Origin: a bacterium
Lineage (GTDB): Bacteria; UBA10199; 2-02-FULL-44-16; JAAZCA01
Assembly: GCA_021810905.1 (NCBI GenBank)
Contig: JAJZQH010000014.1
Coordinates: 12,369-76,368 of the forward strand
Length of the DNA: 64,000 nucleotides
Reading direction: 5' to 3'
Shown: positions 3,876 through 57,555 of the stretch, piece by piece
Numbering within the stretch: position 1 is the stretch's first letter
Layout of the letters: each line of letters starts with the position of its first letter
Notes under the pieces: generated by a model
Told to the model about the DNA's origin: nothing
What the model saw: only the letters and a program-made list of their open reading frames with translations
The model's database searches: none
Program-made: the position numbers and the translations under genes

Positions 3876-4772
3876 GTGGGTTTCAAGGCAGGGTACGTCG
3901 CGATAATCGGCAGGCCGAACGTGGGCAAGTCCACGCTGCTCAACGCCATCCTCGGCGAGCGGCTAGCCATAGTTACGCCCAAGCCGCAGACTACGCGTCA
4001 CCGCATCGTGGGGATTCTCAACGAGCCGGACGTGCAGGTCGTCTTTCTGGACACGCCCGGCTATCATCGTTCCGACAAACCGCTCAATCAGGCGATGAAC
4101 GAGATCGTAGATATGGTCATCCACGACGCGGACGTGGTCTGCCTCATGCTCGACGCATCGTCCAGCGACCTGCGCATCGAGCGCGGGCTCTTCGATCGCA
4201 TAGGCAGGGATCGCTGCATCCTCGTCGCCAACAAATCCGACCTCGTCGATCGCAAGAAGTTCGACGAGATCGCGCACCGCTTCCGCGACGATTGGAACGC
4301 GAACGAGATGGTCTTTCTCTCGGCGCTAAGGAACGAGGGCGTTCGCACGCTCATCGACGCGATCACCGCGCGCATGCCCGAGGGCGAGGCTTTTTTCCCT
4401 GACGACATCTACACGAGCCATCCCGTGCGCTTCATAGCGGCCGAACTCATCCGCGAGCAGCTCTTTTTGCAGATGCACCAGGAGATTCCTTATTCCACTG
4501 CGGTGGAGATAGAGGAATTCAAGGACGCCACCGAGAACGATCCGATAACGCGCATCAAAGCGTCGATCGTCGTTGAGAAGGAGTCGCAGAAGGCGATGGT
4601 GATAGGAAAGGGCGGCACGCGCATCCGCGAGATCGGCACCCGCGCGCGCAAGGCGATCGAGGAGCTGGTGGGCGGCAAGGTCTTCCTCGACCTCAACGTG
4701 AGGGTGGAGAAGGACTGGACCAAAGACCCCGACGCCATCCGCCGCCTGGGTTACTCATCACAGATGGAGTGA
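3876..4772 (+). CDS. era: GTPase Era
   Basis: G1 motif IIGRPNVGKSTLLN, G3 motif DTPG, G4 motif NKSD, and a C-terminal KH domain. Start codon abuts the previous stop. Confidence 0.92.
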   Translation: MGFKAGYVAIIGRPNVGKSTLLNAILGERLAIVTPKPQTTRHRIVGILNEPDVQVVFLDTPGYHRSDKPLNQAMNEIVDMVIHDADVVCLMLDASSSDLRIERGLFDRIGRDRCILVANKSDLVDRKKFDEIAHRFRDDWNANEMVFLSALRNEGVRTLIDAITARMPEGEAFFPDDIYTSHPVRFIAAELIREQLFLQMHQEIPYSTAVEIEEFKDATENDPITRIKASIVVEKESQKAMVIGKGGTRIREIGTRARKAIEELVGGKVFLDLNVRVEKDWTKDPDAIRRLGYSSQME

Positions 4773-6038: not shown

Positions 6039-7205
6039 ATGAAGAATACGCGAAATCGATTTGTCTTCAGCGCGGCATGGACCGTCGCTGGGATCATGGT
6101 TCTGGCCCTGTCTTTTACCGCCGCTTCCGCCTCTGCGCGTGACAAAGGTGGTTCCGGCGACGTGATAAATTATTCTTGGGCTTCCAGCAGGATCGAAGGC
6201 GAGCTCTGGGGGCTGGCACAGGGAAACCTGGATAACGACGGCTCCGCTGATACTGTGCTGCTCGAGCGCAAGCGCGTTCGCATCGGGAAAATCGGGGAGA
6301 AGGGCTTTGAGGAGCGATTCTCGTGCGGATGGAAAGAGGACGCGGCCGCGGCGCGCGCGTATCTGATCGATGTCGATGGTGATGGAAAAGACGAGATCGC
6401 AATATCCGCGGTAGAGGAGGGGATGCCCTCGTCGCTCGTGCTTGCGGTCGACGCGGACGCAAAGAAATGCAGCGAGCTCGTCTCGCGCGCGAGATGGTCG
6501 ATTCGCGCTGTGGCGCTGCCTGCTGAAGGCGCGGACACGGGGCCTGCCAGGCGCGTACTCGCCGGCCAGGCGTGGAGTTCGCAGAAATATTTCAGCGGCC
6601 CTATCGTGGAACTCGCGCTTAAGAAGGACAAGCTGGTCAGGCAGCGTGATATCGAGCTGCCGCACTTTACCGATCTTTATCAGTTCACGATCCTGCCGCC
6701 GGAGAACGGCGCTGAGCGGGTGCTCAGGCTCGCCGGCTATTCGGCAATGGAGCTTAGGGAGCACAAGGGCGGCGGCAAGTGGCGCAAGATCTGGCGCTCC
6801 GGCGACAAGCTCGGCGGGGCCGCGAATCTCCTTCCAGCCGTGCAGCGGCCCGCGCTCGATGAGGTGTCGAGCGACTACGCATATTTTGACCTGCCGCCGC
6901 TGACCCTCAAACAGGCCGATGGAGTGCACGCTCTGGCGGTCAAATACGACCTGCCGCTGCGCAACGTGATCGGAAGGACGCCGTACGCCAGGGGTGCAGA
7001 GACGGTGATGTTCAAACCAGATCCAGCGCTCACGTACATAGAAGAGAAGCGGACCCAGGACCTGCCAGGCCCGATCATGGATTACTTCATCGCAGCGCCG
7101 GCCGACTCCGCAGGCAAGGTCAGGCTTTATGTACTGGTACAGCAGGACGCAGGAGCCTTCATCAACTCCACCGAGGCATCGATACTCGCGTTCGATCTGA
7201 ACTAG
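6039..7205 (+). CDS. secreted hypothetical protein with FG-GAP/VCBS-like Asp-rich repeats
   Basis: Start set at MKNTRNRFVFSAAWTVAGIMVLALSFTAASASA, a signal peptide. Motifs DNDGSADTV and DVDGDGKDEIA. Stop TAG at 7203-7205. Confidence 0.65.
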   Translation: MKNTRNRFVFSAAWTVAGIMVLALSFTAASASARDKGGSGDVINYSWASSRIEGELWGLAQGNLDNDGSADTVLLERKRVRIGKIGEKGFEERFSCGWKEDAAAARAYLIDVDGDGKDEIAISAVEEGMPSSLVLAVDADAKKCSELVSRARWSIRAVALPAEGADTGPARRVLAGQAWSSQKYFSGPIVELALKKDKLVRQRDIELPHFTDLYQFTILPPENGAERVLRLAGYSAMELREHKGGGKWRKIWRSGDKLGGAANLLPAVQRPALDEVSSDYAYFDLPPLTLKQADGVHALAVKYDLPLRNVIGRTPYARGAETVMFKPDPALTYIEEKRTQDLPGPIMDYFIAAPADSAGKVRLYVLVQQDAGAFINSTEASILAFDLN

Positions 7206-7434: not shown

Positions 7435-7505
7435 CAGTTGCACTGATGAATTCCCTAGGTTGCCGAAACGTTATGAACGGAGTCAACCTTACGTTTGGCA
7501 CTTGA

Positions 7506-7774
7506 GCGGTGCAGCTATTCGGCCTGGAGTTTATTGGCGGGCATCGCGTAGAGAGCCGTCTTTGTCGGCGAGCGGTTGCCGGTCGTGCCAGAGTAGAAGC
7601 CCGGGTTGCACGACGCCGAGGCTGTTCGAGCCTGCGAAAGCGGTTTTTTTTAGAGGTAAAGACTTCTTTTGCTTTCGCAGGCGAGTTCCGAGGCGAGGCA
7701 ACCCGAGTCCGTTACAAAGACGTGCGAACGGAGCGCCGCCCGACGATAAACTCCAGGCCGAATAGCTGCACCGC
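7506..7774. repeat. 269-nt element closed by 24-nt perfect inverted repeats, with internal 12-bp hairpin
   Basis: GCGGTGCAGCTATTCGGCCTGGAG at 7506-7529 is the reverse complement of 7751-7774. Internal hairpin GCCTGCGAAAGC with a 29-nt U-rich loop and GCTTTCGCAGGC at 7630-7682. Lies in the convergent gap about 50 nt from the gltB stop. Confidence 0.6.
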
Positions 7775-7822
7775 CTTGGTGCCAATCTGCGTGTTGACTT
7801 CGTTCATAACGTCTCGCCGCGC

Positions 7823-10800
7823 TTACCGCGGAGTCACTAGGATGAAACGGGTGGAGGTTTCCTGCCAGGTGTCCAGCAGGCTGCGGGCTTGCGGGCTCTT
7901 TGTATCATTATAATAGTCAGTCAGGATCTCCCTGAGCGCATCTGTCTTGCCCGGTTCGTCCGCGAGAGATATTGCCGTCACGTCGGAATGCAGGCGCTCG
8001 CGCGCGCTGCCGTCCGGATCAAAGAGATATATCTCTCCGCCGGTCATGCCTGAGCCGACGCAGGGTCCGCATCTGCCGAGCACCACGCCAGTGCCGCCTG
8101 TCATGTATTCGAACGCGTATTTGCCGACCCCCTCGCAGATCAGCAGCGCGCCAGAGTTGCGCACTCCAAAGCGCTGGCCAGCCCTGCCGGCGATATAGAG
8201 ACGACCGCCTGTTGCACCGTATGCAGCGGAATTGCCGACGAGGTGTGGAGCGCAATCGCCTCCAACCCCGGCAGGCGGCGCAATCACGACGCTCGCATTG
8301 CCGCTCATCGCCTCTGCGACGCCGTCGTTTGCAAAGCCGTCGAGCCTTAGGGTCATGCCGTCCGTCGCGGCAAAGCCGAATCCATGTCCGGAATAGCCCT
8401 TGGCGTGGATCTCAATTCGTTCCGCGGTTTCTGCCACCCTCTCCCTTGATGGGAGAGGGAAGGGTGAGGGTGCATCCGATCTCAGCCTGGCTATTTCTCC
8501 TGCAAGCGTTGCGCCCACGGCGTGGTCGCCGTTGCAAAGCGATATGCGTATCGGCGCATTCCCGGCGCGTCCGTCGAACACGGCGCGGGCGGAAGAGAGG
8601 ATCTCGGCGTTCCTTGCGGATACGGCACGAAATTCCGTTTGAACACATCGTGCAGTGCGCGCCTCGCCATGGAAGTACATGAGCATATCCGTGAAATCGA
8701 GACGATCCCAGCGCGCCATACCTGATACGCGAGGTTTCAAGAGATCCACGCGGCCCACGAGTTCGCGCGGGTGTGTGAGGCCCAACGTAGCGAGTATGTT
8801 CCTTAAGTCGTCGCCCATGCATTCGAGATAGCGGATCACGCCGCTTTTTGCTTCATTATATCGATCCATCGCTGCTGCTTCATCGGGATGCACTCCCTTG
8901 AGATAGCCGCGCATGAAGCGTTTGTTCTGTTTTTCCTCGTCCTGCGTCGCGATGCCCACCGGGCAGTTGCCCTTGTTGCACCCACGGCAGAATATGCAGC
9001 ACTCGGCCACGAGGAGCGGCGTGCCTATGGAGACTTCATCGGCGCCGAGCGCGATGATCTTTGCCGCATCCATGCCGCACTTGATGCCGCCGTCCGCGCG
9101 CACGCGCACGCGCGAGCGGATTCCGTTTACGACAAGATATTGATGCAGCTCGGAGACGCCGCGTTCGATCGGCAGTCCCGCGTGCGAGATGCTGCCGGAG
9201 CTCGCGGCGCCGGTGCCGCCCTCAAAGCCGCTCACCACGATCACGTCGGCGCCTGCCTTTGCAACTCCAACGCCGATCGTCCCGAGATTTGTGACCGATG
9301 GAACCTTGACCGACACGATTGCTTCAGGATGCAGCTCGCGGAGATTGGTGATCAGCTGTGCAAGATCCTCGATGCTGTAGATGTCATGATGCGGGGGAGG
9401 GCTGATGAGATCCACGCCAGGCTTCGTCTTTCTGATGCGCGCGATTTCCTCGGTGACTTTTCTGCCGGGCAGGTGGCCGCCCTCGCCGGGCTTGGCGCCC
9501 TGGCCGATCTTTATCTCGATCTCGTCCGCGTGTACGAGATACGTGGCGTCCACGCCGAACCTGCCGGACGCGATCTGGCGGATCCTGCTGCGATCGGAGG
9601 CCCACTCGCCGTCCTGGTTTCGACGCTCGTCTTCTCCGCCCTCGCCGGAGCATGAGGCTGCATCGAAGTGGTTGAAGGCCGACGCTATGGCGCGATGTGC
9701 CGTCGAGTTGAGCGCACCGTGCGACATGGCTGCCCCGCGTATCGTACTCCTTACGATCTCTCTTGTGTCCGCGACTTTTTCGAGATGCGGCGGCATGTCG
9801 CTTTTTTTGAATTCGAGCATGTCGCGCAGATATACGGGAGGTGTATCTTCAAGCAGTTTCACGAACCGGTCGTAGTCGCCGTTTGAATTTCCGTTGCGCG
9901 CAACGAGCTGGAGCGCGTCTGTCACTTCCTTGCGATAGACCGTCATGTTTTTGTTTCGCGCTATGGCATTCGAACCGACGGCCGAGCGTGCGACTGTGTC
10001 CTCGTAGATGTCGTCCATGGTGATGCCGCCGAGCCGCGAGACCGTATCCGGGATGTAGTATTCGACGACATCCGAAGAGATGCCGATCGCCTCGAAGAGC
10101 GCCGAGCCGCGATAACCGGTGAGAGTCGTGATGCCCATCTTCGACATGATGCGCCTCAGCGTGTGCACAACCGACTTCACAACGTTGGCGTACGCTTCGT
10201 CAGGTGGGATATCGGAAAAAGTCGTGGCCAGGTGCAGCATGGCGTACGGGTTCACGGCCGTGGCGCCGTAGGAGAGCAGGATCGCACAATCGTGGCCTTC
10301 GTGCGTGCTGCCCGTCTCGGCAATGATGCTGGCAAAGCGCCGGAGGCCCCTAGCGGCGAGCGCCTGATGGATGGAGCTCACAACGAGCAGCATGGGAACC
10401 GGCGGCCTTTCGCCGCGCGTGGCGGCGTAATCCGTAACAACGAGTATCGACGCCTCCTTGGAGCGTATCACGCGCACGGCTTCGTCGGTGAGGTCGTGTA
10501 TCCTTCTCACGATTTCGCGCGGGCTGCCTTTGTCGACGAAAGTCGCGTCGATCTCGTGCGCCTTTAGTTCAGAGATATCTGATGAGAGGATCGCCTGCAT
10601 CTGATCGTTCGTCAGTATCGGGTGATCCAACTTATACTGCGGCCACGACATGTAATCGCTGCGCCTGCTGATGCGCGGCGAGCGGCCCAGGTACACCGTA
10701 GTATCTATGGCGCCGCCCTCGCGCAGCGGATCGATGGGCGGATTTGTGACGACAGCAACGATCTGGTGAAGGAAGCTGTAGAGCCTGGAATGGTTTTCGC

Positions 10801-12259
10801 TGAAGATCGCGAGCGGGCTGTCGTTGCCCATGCCGAGAATCGGCTCCTTGCCGCCCTTGATCATCTCGTGCAGTTGCTCGATGCGCTCCTTTGTCCAGCC
10901 GAACGCGTTGAGCGCGCGGATATCGAGCGGCTCGCTCTGCCTGCCTCTGCCGATGGGGAGCAGATCCACCGTGGCCAGGTTTTCGAAGTTGAGCCCGGTG
11001 CGATCTACGATCCATGCGGTCGCAGACTCAGGAGATATGAACTCGCCGTTCTCCACGTCGGCGATAAGCATTGCACCCGGCTCGAGCTGGCCATCGCACT
11101 CGATCTCCGAGGCTTCGAGCGGAACCGCACCGGCCTCGCTCGATACGATCACGCGATCGGATTTAGTCCTCACGTATCGTAGCGGCCGCAGTCCCATGCG
11201 GTCCATCGCCGCCGCGAGTATTTTTCCATCCGTGCCGAGGATCGCTATCGGTCCCTCCCACGCGCCCATGGTTCCGAGCGCGCGGCGATTCGCCTCGAAA
11301 AATCTGCGTTCGCGCTCGCCGAGCAGGTCTTCGTCCCAGGCGGGGGAGATCATCCTGCGCAGCGCCTCGTGGATGCCGGTGACGCCGTTGGCCACCATCA
11401 TCTCGGCCACGCGGTCGAGCTGCGCGGAATCGCTTCCGTGGTTCATGAGCGTGTTGCCGATGGCGAGCGCGCTGTCCGCGTCCTTGATGGCGCGGCAGTT
11501 TGCGGTGATCGTGTTGATCTCGCCGTTGTGCGCGATGTGCCGAAACGGCTGCACCAGATTCCAGTTGGAGAACGTGTTGGTAGAGAAGCGCCTGTGCGCC
11601 ACTATAACCCTCGTCTTGAACTCCGGATCGCGGAAGTCCTCATAGAATGACGCGAGTTGATCGGACTTAGCGAGCGCCTTGTAAACGGTTGTATGCGGAG
11701 CGAGCGAGACCACGTTGACTATGCCGGCGAGCTCGCGCTCTATGAGGACCTTCGCGTGGTGGAGCGCTTCAAAGAGCTGCGCCTCCCGCCTGTGGCCCTT
11801 GGCTGCGAGGAGCTGGAATATGATGGGTGCGTCTTCCCGCGCACGAGCGCCCAGTGCAGACGGATCAACCGGAGTCTTGCGCCAACCGAGCGGGGCGAGA
11901 CCCTCCCTGCGTATGATGAGGTCCATTTCGCGCGTGAGCTGCGGGATATTGCGCTCGCCGTGGAGGAAAAAGACCGTGCCCACGATGAGAGGTTCCTTTG
12001 CGCTCTGGAGGGAGCGTCCGTGCGCGATGAATCGCTCGAAGAAGGACCTCTCCGGCCGGAGGATCAGCCCCGCGCCGTCGCCCGTGTCTCCGAGCGAGCC
12101 GCCCCGGTGCTCCATGCGGATGAGCCCGTCCAGGGCCTGCCTGAGCAGTTCGTGGGAGGCCGGCGCAGCCAGATCGGCGATAGCGAGGATCGCGCATCCC
12201 CCGCGGCCGGGGTCGCCCTTGATTTCCTCGATGCGTTTTTTGTATTTTTTCGTATTCAT
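7823..12259 (-). CDS. gltB: glutamate synthase large subunit (single chain, about 1478 aa)
   Basis: N-terminal Ntn amidotransferase region (GDPGRGGCAILAIAD), central FMN/Fe-S domain, C-terminal GXGXG domain. Start set at MNTKKYKK (ATG 12257-12259) with an AAGGA ribosome-binding site. Confidence 0.9.
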   Translation of the reverse strand: MNTKKYKKRIEEIKGDPGRGGCAILAIADLAAPASHELLRQALDGLIRMEHRGGSLGDTGDGAGLILRPERSFFERFIAHGRSLQSAKEPLIVGTVFFLHGERNIPQLTREMDLIIRREGLAPLGWRKTPVDPSALGARAREDAPIIFQLLAAKGHRREAQLFEALHHAKVLIERELAGIVNVVSLAPHTTVYKALAKSDQLASFYEDFRDPEFKTRVIVAHRRFSTNTFSNWNLVQPFRHIAHNGEINTITANCRAIKDADSALAIGNTLMNHGSDSAQLDRVAEMMVANGVTGIHEALRRMISPAWDEDLLGERERRFFEANRRALGTMGAWEGPIAILGTDGKILAAAMDRMGLRPLRYVRTKSDRVIVSSEAGAVPLEASEIECDGQLEPGAMLIADVENGEFISPESATAWIVDRTGLNFENLATVDLLPIGRGRQSEPLDIRALNAFGWTKERIEQLHEMIKGGKEPILGMGNDSPLAIFSENHSRLYSFLHQIVAVVTNPPIDPLREGGAIDTTVYLGRSPRISRRSDYMSWPQYKLDHPILTNDQMQAILSSDISELKAHEIDATFVDKGSPREIVRRIHDLTDEAVRVIRSKEASILVVTDYAATRGERPPVPMLLVVSSIHQALAARGLRRFASIIAETGSTHEGHDCAILLSYGATAVNPYAMLHLATTFSDIPPDEAYANVVKSVVHTLRRIMSKMGITTLTGYRGSALFEAIGISSDVVEYYIPDTVSRLGGITMDDIYEDTVARSAVGSNAIARNKNMTVYRKEVTDALQLVARNGNSNGDYDRFVKLLEDTPPVYLRDMLEFKKSDMPPHLEKVADTREIVRSTIRGAAMSHGALNSTAHRAIASAFNHFDAASCSGEGGEDERRNQDGEWASDRSRIRQIASGRFGVDATYLVHADEIEIKIGQGAKPGEGGHLPGRKVTEEIARIRKTKPGVDLISPPPHHDIYSIEDLAQLITNLRELHPEAIVSVKVPSVTNLGTIGVGVAKAGADVIVVSGFEGGTGAASSGSISHAGLPIERGVSELHQYLVVNGIRSRVRVRADGGIKCGMDAAKIIALGADEVSIGTPLLVAECCIFCRGCNKGNCPVGIATQDEEKQNKRFMRGYLKGVHPDEAAAMDRYNEAKSGVIRYLECMGDDLRNILATLGLTHPRELVGRVDLLKPRVSGMARWDRLDFTDMLMYFHGEARTARCVQTEFRAVSARNAEILSSARAVFDGRAGNAPIRISLCNGDHAVGATLAGEIARLRSDAPSPFPLPSRERVAETAERIEIHAKGYSGHGFGFAATDGMTLRLDGFANDGVAEAMSGNASVVIAPPAGVGGDCAPHLVGNSAAYGATGGRLYIAGRAGQRFGVRNSGALLICEGVGKYAFEYMTGGTGVVLGRCGPCVGSGMTGGEIYLFDPDGSARERLHSDVTAISLADEPGKTDALREILTDYYNDTKSPQARSLLDTWQETSTRFILVTPR
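8435..8482 (-). repeat. palindromic repeat copy embedded in-frame in gltB, encoding SDAPSPFPLPSRERVAE
   Basis: Reverse complement reads GATCGGATGCACCCTCACCCTTCCCTCTCCCATCAAGGGAGAGGGTGGCAGAAACC. It is near-identical to the intergenic copy at 43171-43229. Contains the hairpin CCCTCTCCC..GGGAGAGGG. Confidence 0.7.
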
Positions 12260-12573
12260 GGTTCCTTGCGCAGTAGAAGCAGCTTTTCTCAGTGACGGGA
12301 GGATTGATGTCAAGACGAAATGCTTGCGAAGCAATCTTCTTTATGTCATATGCGCCAGACGTTTTGCCCAGTGACAACTTGATTGCGGGCTGTTCAAAAT
12401 GACCAGATGCAAGGCTCCCGATGGAGCCTGACTGAGATTCACTTGAAAGAGGGTTTCAGAAATAGTGCGAGACGAGGCAGGCTGAGGAGGCCGGCCGAGT
12501 CGTACTGTAAGTACGTCGCAGGCCGTGCCGACGAAGACAACGAAGTATCGCGCTATTTATGAAACCCGACATT

Positions 12574-12647: not shown

Positions 12648-12688
12648 CAAAATATTAAGGCGCCGTCAAGGCGCCTTAATATTTTGCG
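12648..12688 (+). terminator. rho-independent terminator
   Basis: Perfect 16-bp stem AAAATATTAAGGCGCC, loop GTCA, then GGCGCCTTAATATTTT followed by TTTTG. Immediately after the tRNA. Confidence 0.75.
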
Positions 12689-20600: not shown

Positions 20601-20681
20601 AAAACGTCGTTCGTCGTTAGTCGTTCGTGAATCGTAAAGACCTCAGTCACTTGGGCGGTTTTACGATCGACGAACGACGAA
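20601..20681. repeat. TAGT-arm hairpin element, copy A (5-prime leader of yfgM-like gene)
   Basis: AAAACGTCGTTCGTCGTTAGTCGTTCGTGAATCGTAAAGACCTCAGTCACTTGGGCGGTTTTACGATCGACGAACGACGA. Arms and core are self-complementary. Homologous copies at 36618-36728 and 39975-40050. Confidence 0.65.
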
Positions 20682-20758
20682 GGAGGTGTCCAATTCCTAC
20701 CTATAAACAGCTGCCGCGCGGGAAGCAAAAAGCGCACGACGATTTCAAAGACTGGAGC

Positions 20759-24687: not shown

Positions 24688-24704
24688 AATCTTGTGACAA
24701 TCAA

Positions 24705-24794
24705 CCCCTCCCCTTTGTAAGGGGAGGATGGGAGAGGTAGACCGTGGATACAACCACGATCTACCTCCCCTCGCCCCTCCTTACAAAGGAGGGG
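24705..24794. repeat. REP-like palindromic element: two inverted units of CCCCTCC-TTTGTAA-GGAGGGG..GGGAGGTAGAYC
   Basis: Unit at 24705-24743, palindromic spacer GTGGATACAACCAC, inverted unit at 24758-24794. The same unit recurs at 57518-57555. Confidence 0.7.
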
Positions 24795-24817
24795 AATAAA
24801 TCGTCACTTATCACTGC

Positions 24818-26340: not shown

Positions 26341-26470
26341 TACGTTAGTACGTTAGTACGTTAGTACTTTCGTACGTTCGTTAAGCGTGTGAGCTGTCAG
26401 GTTTAGAACACCATGTTCGATCACGATCCTTTAACTAACGTACCAACGTACTAACGTACCAACGTACGAA
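26341..26470. repeat. inverted-repeat element with TACGTTAG tandem arms (divergent member of the TAGT-arm family)
   Basis: Left arm is TACGTTAG repeated about 3.5 times. Right arm is the reverse-complement pattern CTAACGTACCAACGTACTAACGTACCAACGTACG. About 70-nt core. Lies directly upstream of guaA. Confidence 0.55.
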
Positions 26471-36618: not shown

Positions 36619-36728
36619 AAACCGTCGTTCGTCGTTAGTCGTTCGTCGATCGTGACGGCCTCAAGAACATGGACGTTTTTACGATCAACGCACCACGAAT
36701 TACGAACGACTAACGACTAACGACGAAA
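36618..36728. repeat. TAGT-arm hairpin element, copy B (fills the gap from the dnaE stop to the ribosome-binding site of the next gene)
   Basis: AAAACCGTCGTTCGTCGTTAGTCGTTCGTCGATCGTGACGGCCTCAAGAAC..GTTTTTACGATCAACG..CGAACGACTAACGACTAACGACGAAAC. Arms are reverse complements. Aligns with copy A. Confidence 0.65.
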
Positions 36729-42096: not shown

Positions 42097-43023
42097 TCAT
42101 TTTTTTGCCGGGGCCTTCTCGATATGCATTATTATCCGGCCGTCCTTGAAGATACGTACGTCGCCGGAGGACTGCGATATAACAAAGGCCACAGCCCGGG
42201 TCAAGCTTGTGATGCCCGCCGCAGCAATATGCCGGCTCCCTAGACCGCGCGGAAGCTGCGATTCATCGATAGCAGCGCCCAGGTAGCGTCCGGCAGCGAG
42301 CACGGTCCCGTCGTCGGCTATCACGAAGGCGCCGTCCATAGCGGCAAACTCGCGGATGGTCTCCTTGAGCGAGGTGGTGAGTATGTTTCGTTCATCCTCG
42401 TCGTAGCCCTTGAAGGGGTTCATGATCATCTGCTTGGAGAGCTGCATCACGTGTTCATGATCGCCCACGACGAAGATAGTACCTATAGACTTGCCCTCGC
42501 GGCCTGTATCCGCCAGCTCCACGGCCAGGTTCAGCACTGCCTGGAAGAGTTCCGGCTGAACCGCTTCAGATATCTTCGCAAGCCCCTTGTGCGCCACGAT
42601 CTCGGATTCCTTTGACGTGTCTACGATCTGTATCAGATCGAGCGATCCCGATTCGGTGGGGCCGACGGCGAAGACGATCTTTGCTCCAGGCTCTACGATC
42701 TCCTGCGAGAGTGCGAGGGTGGTTCCGATCTTTATCAACGAGATGCGCGTGAGCGCTATGCGAGGAATCTGGATTACGGCAGTTGCGCTCATTGCAAGCG
42801 AGTTCTTCTCCTCTTCACTGCCGTCCACGTGTTTTTTCTTCGTGAGCAGTATTATCTTTATGCCCTTTGGAATGCGTTCCTCGCATACGAGATCGTCCAG
42901 GGGATCCACATGCACAACAACGGCATCTGCGTCCGTCTTGGAGGCGATCGTAAAGGCTGTCTTGAGGAATAGTGCGTTTTCGCTGTTCATCCGTATTTCA
43001 AAATACCGGAAGGGCTTCGCCAC
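42097..43023 (-). CDS. DAC (diadenylate cyclase, DisA_N) domain protein with uncharacterised N-terminal domain
   Basis: C-terminal half matches the DAC pattern: GTIFVVGDHE, DGAFVIADDGTVLAAGRYL, LGSRHIAAAGITSLTRAVAFVISQSSGDVRIFKDG (compare RHRAA and VVSEETG in DisA/CdaA). The N-terminal 150 aa has no predicted transmembrane segment and no DisA HhH domain. Confidence 0.65.
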   Translation of the reverse strand: MAKPFRYFEIRMNSENALFLKTAFTIASKTDADAVVVHVDPLDDLVCEERIPKGIKIILLTKKKHVDGSEEEKNSLAMSATAVIQIPRIALTRISLIKIGTTLALSQEIVEPGAKIVFAVGPTESGSLDLIQIVDTSKESEIVAHKGLAKISEAVQPELFQAVLNLAVELADTGREGKSIGTIFVVGDHEHVMQLSKQMIMNPFKGYDEDERNILTTSLKETIREFAAMDGAFVIADDGTVLAAGRYLGAAIDESQLPRGLGSRHIAAAGITSLTRAVAFVISQSSGDVRIFKDGRIIMHIEKAPAKK

Positions 43024-43137
43024 TTCAAGGGGAATGATTGACCTTGCGGTATTGGTGCTGTAAAAAAGCGATCCGTGTTGAACAGCCGCCGCAATAACGC
43101 AGAGAGTGGGCTATGCGAAAGACGATAATATTGAAAG

Positions 43138-43262
43138 CTCCCCGCGGCAAGCCGCGGGGAATCATCGGCAACATTTCCGATCACCCTCACCCTTCCCTCT
43201 CCCCTCAAGGGAGAGGGTGGCGGAAACCCCGCAGCAAGCTGCGGGGTTTCATCGGATTGGCA
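43138..43262. repeat. cluster of three REP-like hairpins
   Basis: Hairpin a: CCCCGCGG-CAAG-CCGCGGGG at 43140-43159. Hairpin b: 43171-43229, the near-identical copy of the gltB insert, with CCCTCTCCC-CTCAA-GGGAGAGGG. Hairpin c: AAACCCCGCAGC-AA-GCTGCGGGGTTT at 43224-43249. Hairpins a and c are followed by the related tails AATCATCGGCAA and TCATCGGATTGGCAA. Confidence 0.7.
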
Positions 43263-43271
43263 ATCATCTTT

Positions 43272-44939
43272 ATGCTGTCCTCCATCGGCGGGACGGCGCG
43301 GGCTGCGCTCAATCCGTCTTCGCCGTTCCAGGTCTTCTGGGACGACGCGCCGATGACGATTTCCGCTGGAACCCCATTCCATCTCAACGTCACGATCAGG
43401 GCGCCCGAGGGGTATTATCTGTATGCGGATGAGACTGACCTCGATTTTGTGAGCCTGGAAGGCCTGTTTGTAAAAGATATTCGATATCCGCGCCCCATTC
43501 AGTACACCGACCCTTATTTAGGCAAGACAGTTGGTATTTTCAAAGGCGATACGGTCATATCGATAGAAGGCATGGCGCCCGCGGGTCTCGAACCTGGCAG
43601 AAAGGAACTCACCGCTTTATTGCATTTCAGAGGGTGTTCTCCTTCGCTCTGTTACAGGCCGGAAGAGGATGAAATCGCCTTCATACTGGTCGTGGAGCCA
43701 GCGCCGCAGGTGGAGCGAGTCGAACCAAAGAATCCGGACGTGCATGCGCAGGAGGAGTCAACGCCAATGCCCAGGAGCCTGCCGGAGCAGCTGGGGCTCA
43801 AGCACCTGCTGCAGGTTCAGGATTTCTCGACTCTGCTGGGGCGCGGAACTCTCTTTGCGCTGCTCGTCGTCTTCCTTGCGGGAGTGCTGACTTCGCTCAC
43901 GCCGTGCGTCTGGCCCGTGATACCCGTGGTCCTCCTCTATGTAGGTGTGCACCCGCACAAGCGCTTTCTGGAAAACTTCCTCCTCTCGGCCGTGATGGTC
44001 CTGGGGATAGTGGTCACCTATGCCGCACTGGGCATCGGCGTTGCGGCCTTTGGAAAAAACCTGGGTTTCCTCTATCAGCAGCGGTGGTTTTTGGCGCTGG
44101 TCGTGCTCTTCTTCATTGCGATGAGCCTCTCGATGTTCGGGGCCTTTGACATCCGCATGCCGCGCCGCCTTCATGCGCGGCTCCATGCGCTCGGGGGCGA
44201 GGGATACTGGGGCGCCTTCCTGGCTGGCATGGGGCTGGGGCTCGTCGCCTCGCCTTGTTCGGGCCCGGTGCTCGCGGCGCTTTTGGGTTACGTGGCCCTG
44301 CAGGGTAGCTACCTCGTAGGTTTCGGCCTGCTCATAGTCTACGGCCTCGGGATGGGCCTGCTCATGATGCTGCTCGGCGCATGTTACGGAGAGCTTGCCG
44401 GCAAACTCAAAGGGGGCGCGTGGATGCTCTGGATAAGGCGCGCCCTTGGAATCGTATTGCTGTTCCCGGCGGCGTACTACATGGGCGTGCTCTTCAACTG
44501 GAACCCGCAGCACAAGGCCCCTGCGAACGCCGCGCGAATAGAGTGGGTGACCAGTGAAACCGACGCCCTGCGCGCTGCAGCCCAGACGGGTAAATCCGTC
44601 ATGATCGATTTTACGGCCGCGTGGTGTCCGCCGTGCGGAGCGCTCGAACGCAATTTCTTTTCGAGAAACGACGTCATCGGGTTGGGCTTCGAGCTCATCC
44701 CGCTCAGGGTGGACGCAACGTCCGAGACAAAGGACGTGCGGCAGCTCATCGCCAGATACCGCGTCGCAGGATGGCCGACCGTTCTCTTCGTGGGGCCGGA
44801 CGGAACCGTGTACGAGGACCTGAGGGTGAGCGATTACGACCCTCCGGCAATCGAGCGCAACATGCGCGAAGCGATAAAGAGGGCCCATGCTTCTGACATG
44901 CCCGGAATACGCTCCGAACGAGCGACGGAGAAGCGATGA
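43272..44939 (+). CDS. dsbD: thiol:disulfide interchange protein DsbD-like (CcdA-type membrane core plus C-terminal thioredoxin)
   Basis: Transmembrane Cys pair LTPCVWPVIPV and SPCSGPVLAALL. C-terminal thioredoxin FTAAWCPPCGALE. Start uncertain (ATG 43272 or upstream TTG); the long upstream in-frame extension covers the repeat cluster. Confidence 0.75.
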   Translation: MLSSIGGTARAALNPSSPFQVFWDDAPMTISAGTPFHLNVTIRAPEGYYLYADETDLDFVSLEGLFVKDIRYPRPIQYTDPYLGKTVGIFKGDTVISIEGMAPAGLEPGRKELTALLHFRGCSPSLCYRPEEDEIAFILVVEPAPQVERVEPKNPDVHAQEESTPMPRSLPEQLGLKHLLQVQDFSTLLGRGTLFALLVVFLAGVLTSLTPCVWPVIPVVLLYVGVHPHKRFLENFLLSAVMVLGIVVTYAALGIGVAAFGKNLGFLYQQRWFLALVVLFFIAMSLSMFGAFDIRMPRRLHARLHALGGEGYWGAFLAGMGLGLVASPCSGPVLAALLGYVALQGSYLVGFGLLIVYGLGMGLLMMLLGACYGELAGKLKGGAWMLWIRRALGIVLLFPAAYYMGVLFNWNPQHKAPANAARIEWVTSETDALRAAAQTGKSVMIDFTAAWCPPCGALERNFFSRNDVIGLGFELIPLRVDATSETKDVRQLIARYRVAGWPTVLFVGPDGTVYEDLRVSDYDPPAIERNMREAIKRAHASDMPGIRSERATEKR

Positions 44940-46858: not shown

Positions 46859-46922
46859 CACGCCTGCAGAATCAATTTTCGTTACAGCGCTTGACGGGTA
46901 CGCGGAGAGCGTGTATCGGGTT

Positions 46923-46942
46923 ATATCGTCATATGACGATAT
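46923..46942. promoter_or_regulatory. 20-bp perfect palindrome, candidate ArsR operator
   Basis: ATATCGTCAT then ATGACGATAT, 30 nt upstream of the arsR ATG. A TTGACG hexamer lies at 46891-46896. Confidence 0.5.
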
Positions 46943-46971
46943 AACGATAAATGATTTTGGCGTGAGGACGT

Positions 46972-57511: not shown

Positions 57512-57517
57512 ATATTA

Positions 57518-57555
57518 CCCCTCCTTTGTAAGGAGGGGTAGGGGAGGTAGATCCT
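57518..57555. repeat. REP-like unit CCCCTCC-TTTGTAA-GGAGGGG-TAGGGGAGGTAGATCC (same family as 24705-24794)
   Basis: Begins 7 nt after the arsP stop. Hairpin stem of 7 bp with a TTTGTAA loop. Near-identical to the inverted unit at 24758-24794. Confidence 0.7.

Follow-up and report, generated by a model that had tools for sequence, protein, structure and literature searches.

Among the closest described relatives of the structure considered here are certain insertion sequences and short palindromic repeats. Insertion sequences of the IS200/IS605 family transpose as single strands, by a 'peel and paste' process carried out by the Y1 HUH transposase TnpA (PMC5027513, PMC10055086), and they insert 3' of a specific tetra- or pentanucleotide with no duplication (PMC5027513); their gene-less derivatives, the palindrome-associated transposable elements (PATEs), are covered, as are TAM/TEM, in PMC10055086. 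Repetitive extragenic palindromes (REPs) are GC-rich imperfect palindromes of 20-40 bp with an unpaired GTAG or CGTC tag, and are found in opposite orientation in bacterial interspersed mosaic elements (BIMEs) (PMC3733652). In the window analysed here, a stretch of 64,000 nucleotides from contig JAJZQH010000014.1, three consecutive hairpins (a, b and c) stand at the 5' end of a gene for a DsbD-like thiol:disulfide reductase. We argue, with a probability of about 0.72 for the reading as a whole, that this cluster is one 126-nt non-autonomous mobile element, a transposase-less IS200/IS605 derivative of the PATE kind and a close cousin of REPs, and that the long open reading frame (ORF) running through it is a real gene carrying an in-frame insertion. 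The features concerned, in window coordinates, are these.

43113-44939, forward strand: DsbD-like thiol:disulfide reductase gene, 608 aa, with Pfam domains DsbD_N, DsbD_TM and thioredoxin, a start homologous to those of related genes, and synteny with loci L002 and L003.
43130-43133, forward strand: ATTG beside the left junction, a candidate for the target tetranucleotide or for one adjacent to the transposon; ATTG also closes the element, at 43256-43259.
43134-43259, forward strand: 126-nt composite, probably a mobile element, whose parts are the LE-type hairpin a, a spacer with module b, the RE-type hairpin c and 13 nt of tail with ATTG at its end.
43140-43159, forward strand: hairpin a, CCCCGCGGCAAGCCGCGGGG, with AAAGCT on its 5' side and AATCATCGG on its 3' side; a member of the CCCCGCNGCAAGCNGCGGGG family.
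43182-43220, forward strand: module b, 39 nt, CACCCTCACCCTTCCCTCTCCCCTCAAGGGAGAGGGTGG, with its core hairpin at 43195-43217, nested in the spacer between a and c.
43223-43250, forward strand: hairpin c, with the core CCCCGCAGCAAGCTGCGGGG at 43227-43246 and a GAAA/TTTC extension that takes the stem to 13 bp.

The three perfect hairpins picked out in the initial annotation are all present. Hairpin a reads CCCCGCGG-CAAG-CCGCGGGG, its stem amounting to 10 bp when T43139/A43160 and the innermost C-G pair are counted, which leaves AA as the loop; hairpin b is CCCTCTCCC-CTCAA-GGGAGAGGG, and hairpin c is GAAACCCCGCAGC-AA-GCTGCGGGGTTTC. Taken one by one, their RNA folding energies are -19.9, -26.1 and -23.2 kcal/mol for a, b and c respectively, and the 161-nt region that holds them folds at -74.1 kcal/mol, compared with -49.9 +/- 3.7 for 200 shuffled sequences, none of which was as stable (0/200; z = -6.5). 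Hairpins a and c are direct repeats, 86% identical over 29 nt and 87 nt apart, with the CAAG loop in the same orientation and stems that differ by a compensatory G>A / C>T change. Both have GC-rich stems of 8-13 bp within units of about 36-39 nt, flanks included (AAAGCT / AATCATC for a, CGGAAA / TTTCATC for c). Either motif, that of a and c or that of b, would be expected by chance in the window 0.00-0.05 times. This direct-repeat match supports the earlier suggestion that a and c are two copies of one unit placed around a different unit, b.

The initial annotation had put the cluster upstream of the DsbD-like gene and had set aside both long ORFs that cross it as probable artefacts. For the ORF at 43106 this was a sound judgement (see the list below); for that at 43113 homology points the other way, and the cluster falls within the gene at codons 8-49, inside a predicted signal peptide of codons 1-64. 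In a search of 5.8 billion proteins, hundreds of homologues cover just 87-91% of the query. Sixty-five DsbD-like homologues of about 545-567 aa begin with M-(R/K)-(R/K) and pass into the hydrophobic core at once (their N-termini, MRKTILRTISCLALILVAF.., MRKISSLALLLLTLIVASASRAASNPSSPFQ.. and MKKLLILAIGLLALFLTSFSRAAINPASPFQ.., exemplify the start types MRKTIL.., MRKISS.. and MKKLLIL..), while the leader in the window is 64 aa long and reads MRKTIIL-[KAPRGKPRGIIGNISDHPHPSLSPQGRGWRKPRSKLRGFIGL]-AIIFMLSSIGGTARA, with predicted cleavage before ALNPSSPFQ. Start, hydrophobic core and cleavage region are thus alike, and the 42 residues between them are extra; the corresponding codons are missing from all of the homologues (65/65). 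Deletion of 43131-43256 in silico yields MRKTIILAIIFMLSSIGGTARA ahead of ALNPSSPF, a signal peptide of 22 aa, as long as in the closest homologues P0002 and P0013, and removal of the 126 nt at 43134-43259 likewise gives MRKTIILAIIFMLSSIGGTARA followed by A; the element-free site at this gene is predicted to read ATAATATTGGCAATC.

Comparison with syntenic relatives leads to the same place. The cluster is absent from the locus L002, whose protein is 77% identical, and from L003 (70%); the gene order in L002 is CDP-OH transferase, phosphoesterase, LplA/B, a small ORF, a divergent diadenylate cyclase, and dsbD. In BLAST alignments the window exceeds both relatives by about 125-126 nt between conserved blocks, after allowing for a 37-nt difference in the leader. 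Because MRKTIIL matches the starts of homologues, because the core and cleavage site resume after the cluster, and because the cluster is exactly the 126-nt excess, ORF 43113 is probably a real gene into which the cluster has been inserted. The translation start, placed by homology only, accordingly lies upstream of position 43138. Two further features belong here.

43039-43067, forward strand: promoter-like TTGACC-N17-TAAAAA, recognised by its conservation with L002 and L003 alone.
43106-43432, forward strand: 108-aa ORF, an artefact, which overlaps the conserved DsbD_N region in another frame and has no family hit.

The promoter-like block takes the form ATTGACC..GTGCTGTAAA (ATTGACC-N17-TAAA(A/T)T) upstream of dsbD in the window, L002 and L003; a scan with a promoter consensus did not call it at 43039-43067. 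In the relatives the TTGACC-N17-TAAATT block (L002 3980-4019, L003 2389-2428) stops 9 nt before the dsbD ATG, which implies that their predicted dsbD mRNA is leaderless or nearly so. The window has about 37 nt more leader than they do (43039-43112), in which GAGAG makes a weak Shine-Dalgarno-like motif.

The whole a-b-c unit recurs elsewhere. The part of this genome that could be read amounts to about 85 kb, that is, the 64-kb window and about 20 kb of flanks; the continuation of the contig beyond the window was taken from NCBI assembly GCA_027327785.1 (contig DAHVYM010000003.1, locus L127), and copy counts per genome refer to these 85 kb, which hold two composites and one solo b. The second copy (L127 13033-13158) is likewise 126 nt long and matches 43134-43259 at 94% identity; its hairpins, too, are 87 nt apart, and its flanks are unrelated. 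It lies on the opposite strand between mscL and secA, whose start is 71 nt downstream, and about 0.9-1.1 kb past the left edge of the window. Like the dsbD copy, it stands just downstream of a divergent promoter region and points to an envelope or secretion gene. Searching exhaustively with HMMER and a 44-residue peptide of the element as query, we encountered a third copy, known here from protein alone, as P0241, a spurious 96-aa ORF on a 287-kb NCBI contig that starts MNVPRGKPRGITGNISDHPHPSLSPQGRGWRKPRSKLRGIIS and is 88% identical to the element peptide over 43 aa. On a JGI contig (L123) a block of b, CGGAAA and c, 97% identical over 71 nt and 100% over a 65-nt core, adjoins an IS3-family element, and its frame yields a 60-aa ORF. 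A diverged arrangement of hairpin, b-like unit and hairpin is found at L094, intergenic between a putative tRNA gene and a putative epmA-like gene. Finally, L128, from an independent assembly of this species, stops within hairpin a of the secA copy, a break of the sort that multi-copy repeats usually leave. The units are therefore not unique, as the initial annotation expected of dispersed repeats. The shared tail TCATCGG on which it had remarked is present here after both hairpins; it belongs to the element only in part, the second copy having TCACCGG after a and TCATCTC after c.

These copies also disposed of two candidate explanations. Tandem duplication was considered as the origin of a and c, and was rejected because the whole unit recurs between unrelated flanks. 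The tail after c resembles TCATCG in L002 and was at one point taken for native dsbD sequence; the other copies show that it is part of the element, and the tail itself varies, with AATCAT in L123 and L127 and TTTCAT in the window.

Similarity between the two full copies begins after A(T/A)TG, with AA(A/T)GCT-hairpin, and ends with CATC(GG/TC)ATTG; there is no longer duplication. The tetranucleotides at the left flank and right end are ATTG and ATTG for the dsbD copy, AATG and ATTG for the secA copy, and AATG and ATTG for L094, these being three copies only. Since ATTG stands at both junctions of the dsbD copy, its boundaries may slide to 43130-43255. An A(A/T)TG immediately before the element and an ATTG at its end are consistent with the IS200/IS605 insertion rule.

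Module b is itself a repeat, a polypyrimidine/polypurine hairpin unit, CACCCTCACCCTTCCCTCTCCCNTCAAGGGAGAGGGTGG, nested within another. When b is subtracted, the spacer between a and c is 28 nt long, as is usual in two-hairpin elements elsewhere that lack b, and the spacer contains a palindrome, TTTCCGAT with CGGAAA, that b interrupts. The same 39-mer, with either base at one variable position, is present at 8434-8472 in the window's gltB gene, in L123 and in L124, and it is solo in gltB and L124. As b occupies the same place in all three full copies, it would have entered the element before the composite spread.

The family of hairpins to which a and c belong is widespread. A scan of 185,579 species genomes with the pattern CCCCGCNGCAAGCNGCGGGG found at least 119 loci (the genome and metagenome scans were single-shot), the hosts among the loci listed being mainly metagenome-assembled genomes (MAGs) of Desulfobacterota-like 'Deltaproteobacteria', Syntrophobacterales, Nitrospirota and Methanotrichaceae; the hairpin is often at a contig end. 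Among 125 copies, the free position of the stem is A-T in 46, G-C in 18, C-G in 13 and T-A in 8, with a recurrent C/A in 30 and other combinations in 10. A Watson-Crick pair is thus formed in 85/125, and the occurrence of all four kinds indicates that stem pairing is maintained. Hairpin a agrees with the flank consensus of the family, A(A/T)TGAA-NNN-hairpin-(T/A)AT, and many copies consist of two direct hairpins 45-90 nt apart. Most (118/125) lie outside long open frames; the remaining seven (7/125) are inside, and most of these frames look spurious. The family is also present in Rickettsia, given that two loci from a MAG of the Rickettsia endosymbiont of Bryobia graminum (L074 and L081) carry the hairpin, flanked identically in both (AAAAGTAAT-hairpin-TATTTTAGAAG).

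The link of this family to Y1 transposases comes from the same loci. A tblastn search of the 119 listed loci with an approximate IS200 TnpA query matched Y1 transposase genes in six, L068, L077, L120, L031, L086 and L090, and in all six a hairpin stands within about 100 nt of the gene. Pfam was run on five of the six matches and PF01797 (Y1_Tnp) was found in all five, at E values from 6e-23 to 1e-42; the sixth, in L086, is an edge fragment matched by tblastn only. Two of the six are complete units.

L068 (Aminicenantales MAG): hairpins at 3904-3923 and 4465-4484; tnpA at 3929-4378; PF01797, E = 6e-40.
L077 (Methanotrichaceae archaeon MAG): hairpins at 6596-6615 and 7149-7168; tnpA at 6657-7124; PF01797, E = 2e-34.

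In both, hairpin, tnpA and hairpin make up a unit of about 575 nt with the hairpins in direct orientation, in organisms other than that of the window, and this layout is the anatomy of IS200-type insertion sequences. One unit (L068 3904-4484) is bacterial and the other (L077 6596-7168) comes from a methanogenic archaeon; the same 20-nt hairpin pattern in both means that the family crosses domains. The gene-less two-hairpin units, including a...c in the window, would then correspond to PATEs (PMC10055086).

The element resembles IS200/IS605 elements and PATEs in several ways. The element is small, non-coding and multi-copy, has subterminal GC-rich hairpins at both ends in direct orientation and no transposase gene, and is without long terminal inverted repeats or a clear target duplication; in the three copies compared, a conserved tetranucleotide stands at the left flank and a similar one ends the element, and the same hairpins flank Y1_Tnp genes in other organisms. 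It differs in carrying the nested repeat b, in that this copy lies in frame within a coding sequence, and in that a cognate transposase was not seen in the 85 kb. With REPs and their associated tyrosine transposases (RAYTs), the palindromes of the a/c family share short length, GC-richness and a tendency to cluster into mosaics and, at the level of the family as a whole, a mostly extragenic position, many copies and linkage to Y1 genes, and occasional intragenic REPs likewise encode 20-30 residues (PMC3733652). However, the hosts are mainly Desulfobacterota-like bacteria, Nitrospirota and Methanotrichaceae rather than the classical gamma- and alpha-proteobacteria, and a and c lie in direct orientation, where BIMEs and REPINs have a head-to-head or tail-to-tail arrangement, with a linker that consists of the 28-nt spacer and module b. 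The earlier description of a REP-like mosaic therefore largely holds, as far as a mosaic of dispersed units with Y1-linked relatives is meant, but a BIME it is not, a and c being direct and untagged. [quoted passage not shown]

In its behaviour the insertion is reminiscent of the Rickettsia palindromic elements (RPEs; described in 2000 and 2002, reviewed in PMC10969869) and the intragenic MITEs of Coxiella (PMC5896051), which also insert palindromes in frame into unrelated housekeeping genes, here dsbD-like and gltB. As with RPEs, the inserts are multiples of three in length, stop-free and placed in a permissive surface or terminal region, the host genes are intact, and orthologues occur without the insert. 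The likeness drawn here is one of insertion behaviour, and the host is not an obligate intracellular bacterium; there are, furthermore, just two intragenic cases here, against the 118/125 family copies that are extragenic, and one of the two lies within a signal peptide rather than a mature protein.

In the history that we propose, the spacer of a two-hairpin element would first have gained a second small repeat, the 39-nt module b, and the whole composite would then have been copied to several places in the genome. One copy would have integrated in sense orientation beside an ATTG that lies within codons 6-7 of the DsbD-like gene, and, the element being a multiple of three in length and stop-free in the dsbD frame, the reading frame would have continued. 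The comparisons above show the insertion relative to orthologues, the multiple copies, the nesting of b and the linkage of the hairpin family to Y1 transposases. We infer that a Y1 transposase mobilised the element in this genome, and that translation proceeds from ATG 43113 through the element with export retained. The precursor would have the ancestral start MRKTIIL, then 42 basic, Pro/Gly-rich residues (KAPRGKPRG..RKPRSKLRGFIGL), after which the intact hydrophobic core and the ARA/A cleavage site would resume, and three stable mRNA hairpins would be placed 27-137 nt past the AUG. The predicted n-region of 45 residues contains 12 K/R, 1 D/E and 12 P/G and ends in RKPRSKLRG right before the hydrophobic core, a composition that appears compatible with Sec targeting. 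Most likely the insertion is a tolerated, near-neutral lengthening of the signal-peptide n-region. More speculatively, and at odds we would rate as rather low, the composite and the module b families, with their lengths in multiples of three and mostly stop-free frames, might be built to survive inside genes and be translated; the 64-residue signal peptide would then be genuine and the element's basic residues tolerated or even useful, in an RPE-like system driven by IS200-type transposition in free-living anaerobes, with b separately mobile and possibly linked to DUF559 genes.

Several observations weigh against the insertion of a Y1-mobilised element into a translated gene. There is no Y1 transposase gene in the 64-kb window and about 20 kb of flanks, and neither strand of the a/c units carries the GTAG or CGTC tag of REPs. 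Read on the other strand, the junctions CAAT ... CAAT/CATT fit equally well, so that the active strand could be either. A 45-residue n-region is unusual, and the in-frame position is weak evidence for translation: the composite is a multiple of three in length, open in two of three sense frames and has no ORF of its own, and most sense insertions would therefore keep an ORF. Lastly, repeats in N-terminal coding regions are often in truth extragenic and included through misannotation, as Di Nocera et al. warn for intragenic REPs (PMC3733652). This warning, together with the ease with which a stop-free element produces an open frame and the fact that intergenic copies do give spurious ORFs in the same frame (P0241 and the 60-aa ORF of L123), favours the view of the initial annotation that ORF 43113 is an artefact of annotation; the element would then lie in a 5' untranslated leader, with the true start at TTG 43257 or ATG 43272. 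We nevertheless consider this unlikely. ATG 43113 and RKTIIL match homologous N-termini, and the promoter-like block upstream is kept in L002 and L003. A start at TTG 43257 would give MAIIFMLSSIGGTARA, with a shortened core and no positive n-region, and the 14 nt upstream of it lie in the 3' arm of hairpin c with no Shine-Dalgarno motif visible; ATG 43272 would leave just 11 residues ahead of the cleavage site. The RKPRSKLRG of the element, by contrast, provides the positive charges that a signal peptide needs.

If the gene is real, the insertion might still have abolished export, leaving a recent and undecayed functional pseudogene, for which the CcdA-like DsbD_TM gene about 10 kb downstream might stand in; a second DsbD_TM/thioredoxin cluster does lie nearby. 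An n-region of 45 residues and charge +11, and an mRNA whose early part holds three hairpins of -20 to -26 kcal/mol, could indeed impair targeting or translation. Against this, the gene looks alive: the 608-codon ORF is intact with all three domains and catalytic-type motifs, its stop overlaps the start of the next gene (ATGA), as in translational coupling, the core and cleavage site are untouched, and the same allele is present in three assemblies. We regard decay of this kind as improbable. It is more doubtful still that selection maintains the hairpins as a cis-regulatory RNA device of dsbD, such as an attenuator or terminator, an mRNA stabiliser or a translational pause, rather than selfish DNA. 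The fold is very stable, the other full copy is also found downstream of a divergent promoter and upstream of secA, and REP-type hairpins are known to affect mRNA stability (PMC3733652); but orthologous dsbD genes manage without the cluster, the same units occur in unrelated contexts (the GltB loop, beside an IS3 element, after DUF559 genes, flanking transposase genes), a scan for intrinsic terminators at 42800-43500 found none, hairpin c being followed only by TTT with no U-run, and Rfam, at the gathering threshold and at E <= 10, returned only a tRNA and noise and no family for the hairpins. The least credible alternative is that an assembler threaded the repeat wrongly into the 5' end of dsbD. 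The sequence occurs more than once and its length falls below the k-mer size used (the contig name includes k141), and another assembly does break at it; yet the flanks are truly adjacent in syntenic relatives, so that an assembler would need reads spanning the junctions to place it, the junctions are clean and in frame, and an identical protein is found on both ENA and NCBI contigs.

The solo copy of module b provides a second intragenic case, for which the initial annotation had already named a twin of hairpin b in gltB.

8426-8472, reverse strand: module b twin within the glutamate synthase large-subunit gene (7823-12334, reverse strand), in frame as ..APSPFPLPSRERVAET...

The hairpin itself was found at 8437-8459 on the reverse strand with one mismatch, and homology extends over 47-50 nt (43182-43231 against 8423-8472); on one possible reading b measures exactly 42 nt, with 3 nt duplicated in gltB. 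The gene has 1503 codons and reads the twin in a frame other than that used in dsbD, as ..ARLRSDAPSPFPLPSRERVAETAER... The resulting GltB has about 14 extra residues relative to 28/29 aligned homologues and to GltB structures in the PDB, in a variable loop before the GXGXG beta-helix; the boundaries of b are uncertain here by a few bases, and the loop alignment by about 2 residues either way. The protein still scores above the NCBIfam equivalog cutoff. In P0127, a distant homologue of GltB, the loop in question holds a larger insertion of independent origin that includes a b-like peptide, PSPLAGEGGERG, which suggests that the loop is a permissive or preferred insertion site.

Hairpins resembling b also lie at the 3' ends of DUF559 (Vsr-like) nuclease genes, or just beyond them, in two unrelated sequences, L124 and P0243 (PF04480, E about 1e-39), those in L124 forming an inverted pair at 558-596 and about 50 nt downstream. 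The b-type repeats may be linked to DUF559 genes, a lead rather than an explanation; the window contains no DUF559 gene.

Most documented cases of such in-frame insertion come from Rickettsia and a few pathogens. The phenomenon itself is thus already known, and what is new is an unnamed hairpin family with its nested composite, and an unusually clean insertion in a signal peptide. When 8 million papers were searched literally for the hairpin sequences, there was no match. For annotation, the implication is that the long ORF is probably real and its odd N-terminus element-derived, neither to be trimmed nor to be called a new domain. For the biology of repeats, the family is widespread in bacterial and archaeal MAGs, breaks assemblies and is tied to IS200-type Y1 transposases, and the composite exemplifies how such elements nest and spread together. 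With regard to protein evolution, the two genes would amount to a natural experiment on how far the n-region of a Sec signal peptide and a surface loop of GltB tolerate insertion.

Other repeats were seen in the window. A different dispersed intergenic family, with hairpins of the CCCCTCC(T)TTGTAAGGAGGGG type, is represented by a 92-nt double palindrome at 24.7 kb (24703-24798) and a half copy at 57.5 kb (57513-57553), and also occurs at L002 2917-2996 and at L123 11515-11614 and 12140-12174. Three intergenic elements (26345-26470, 36619-36725 and 20601-20684) have arms of inverted tandem 6-7-mers around a core of about 50 nt, the unit being GTACGTTA in the element at 26.4 kb and CGTCGTT/AGTCGTT in those at 36.6 and 20.6 kb; these could be MITEs or iteron-like arrays. 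Directly downstream of the gltB stop, a 79-nt inverted repeat with 82% identity (7464-7542 against 7738-7816) encloses about 200 nt, and a 39-nt palindrome (12648-12686) directly follows tRNA-Met. Finally, a perfect AT-rich palindrome of 26 nt (46920-46945, core TATATCGTCATATGACGATATA) lies between an ORF for a GMC oxidoreductase and the next, convergent ORF.

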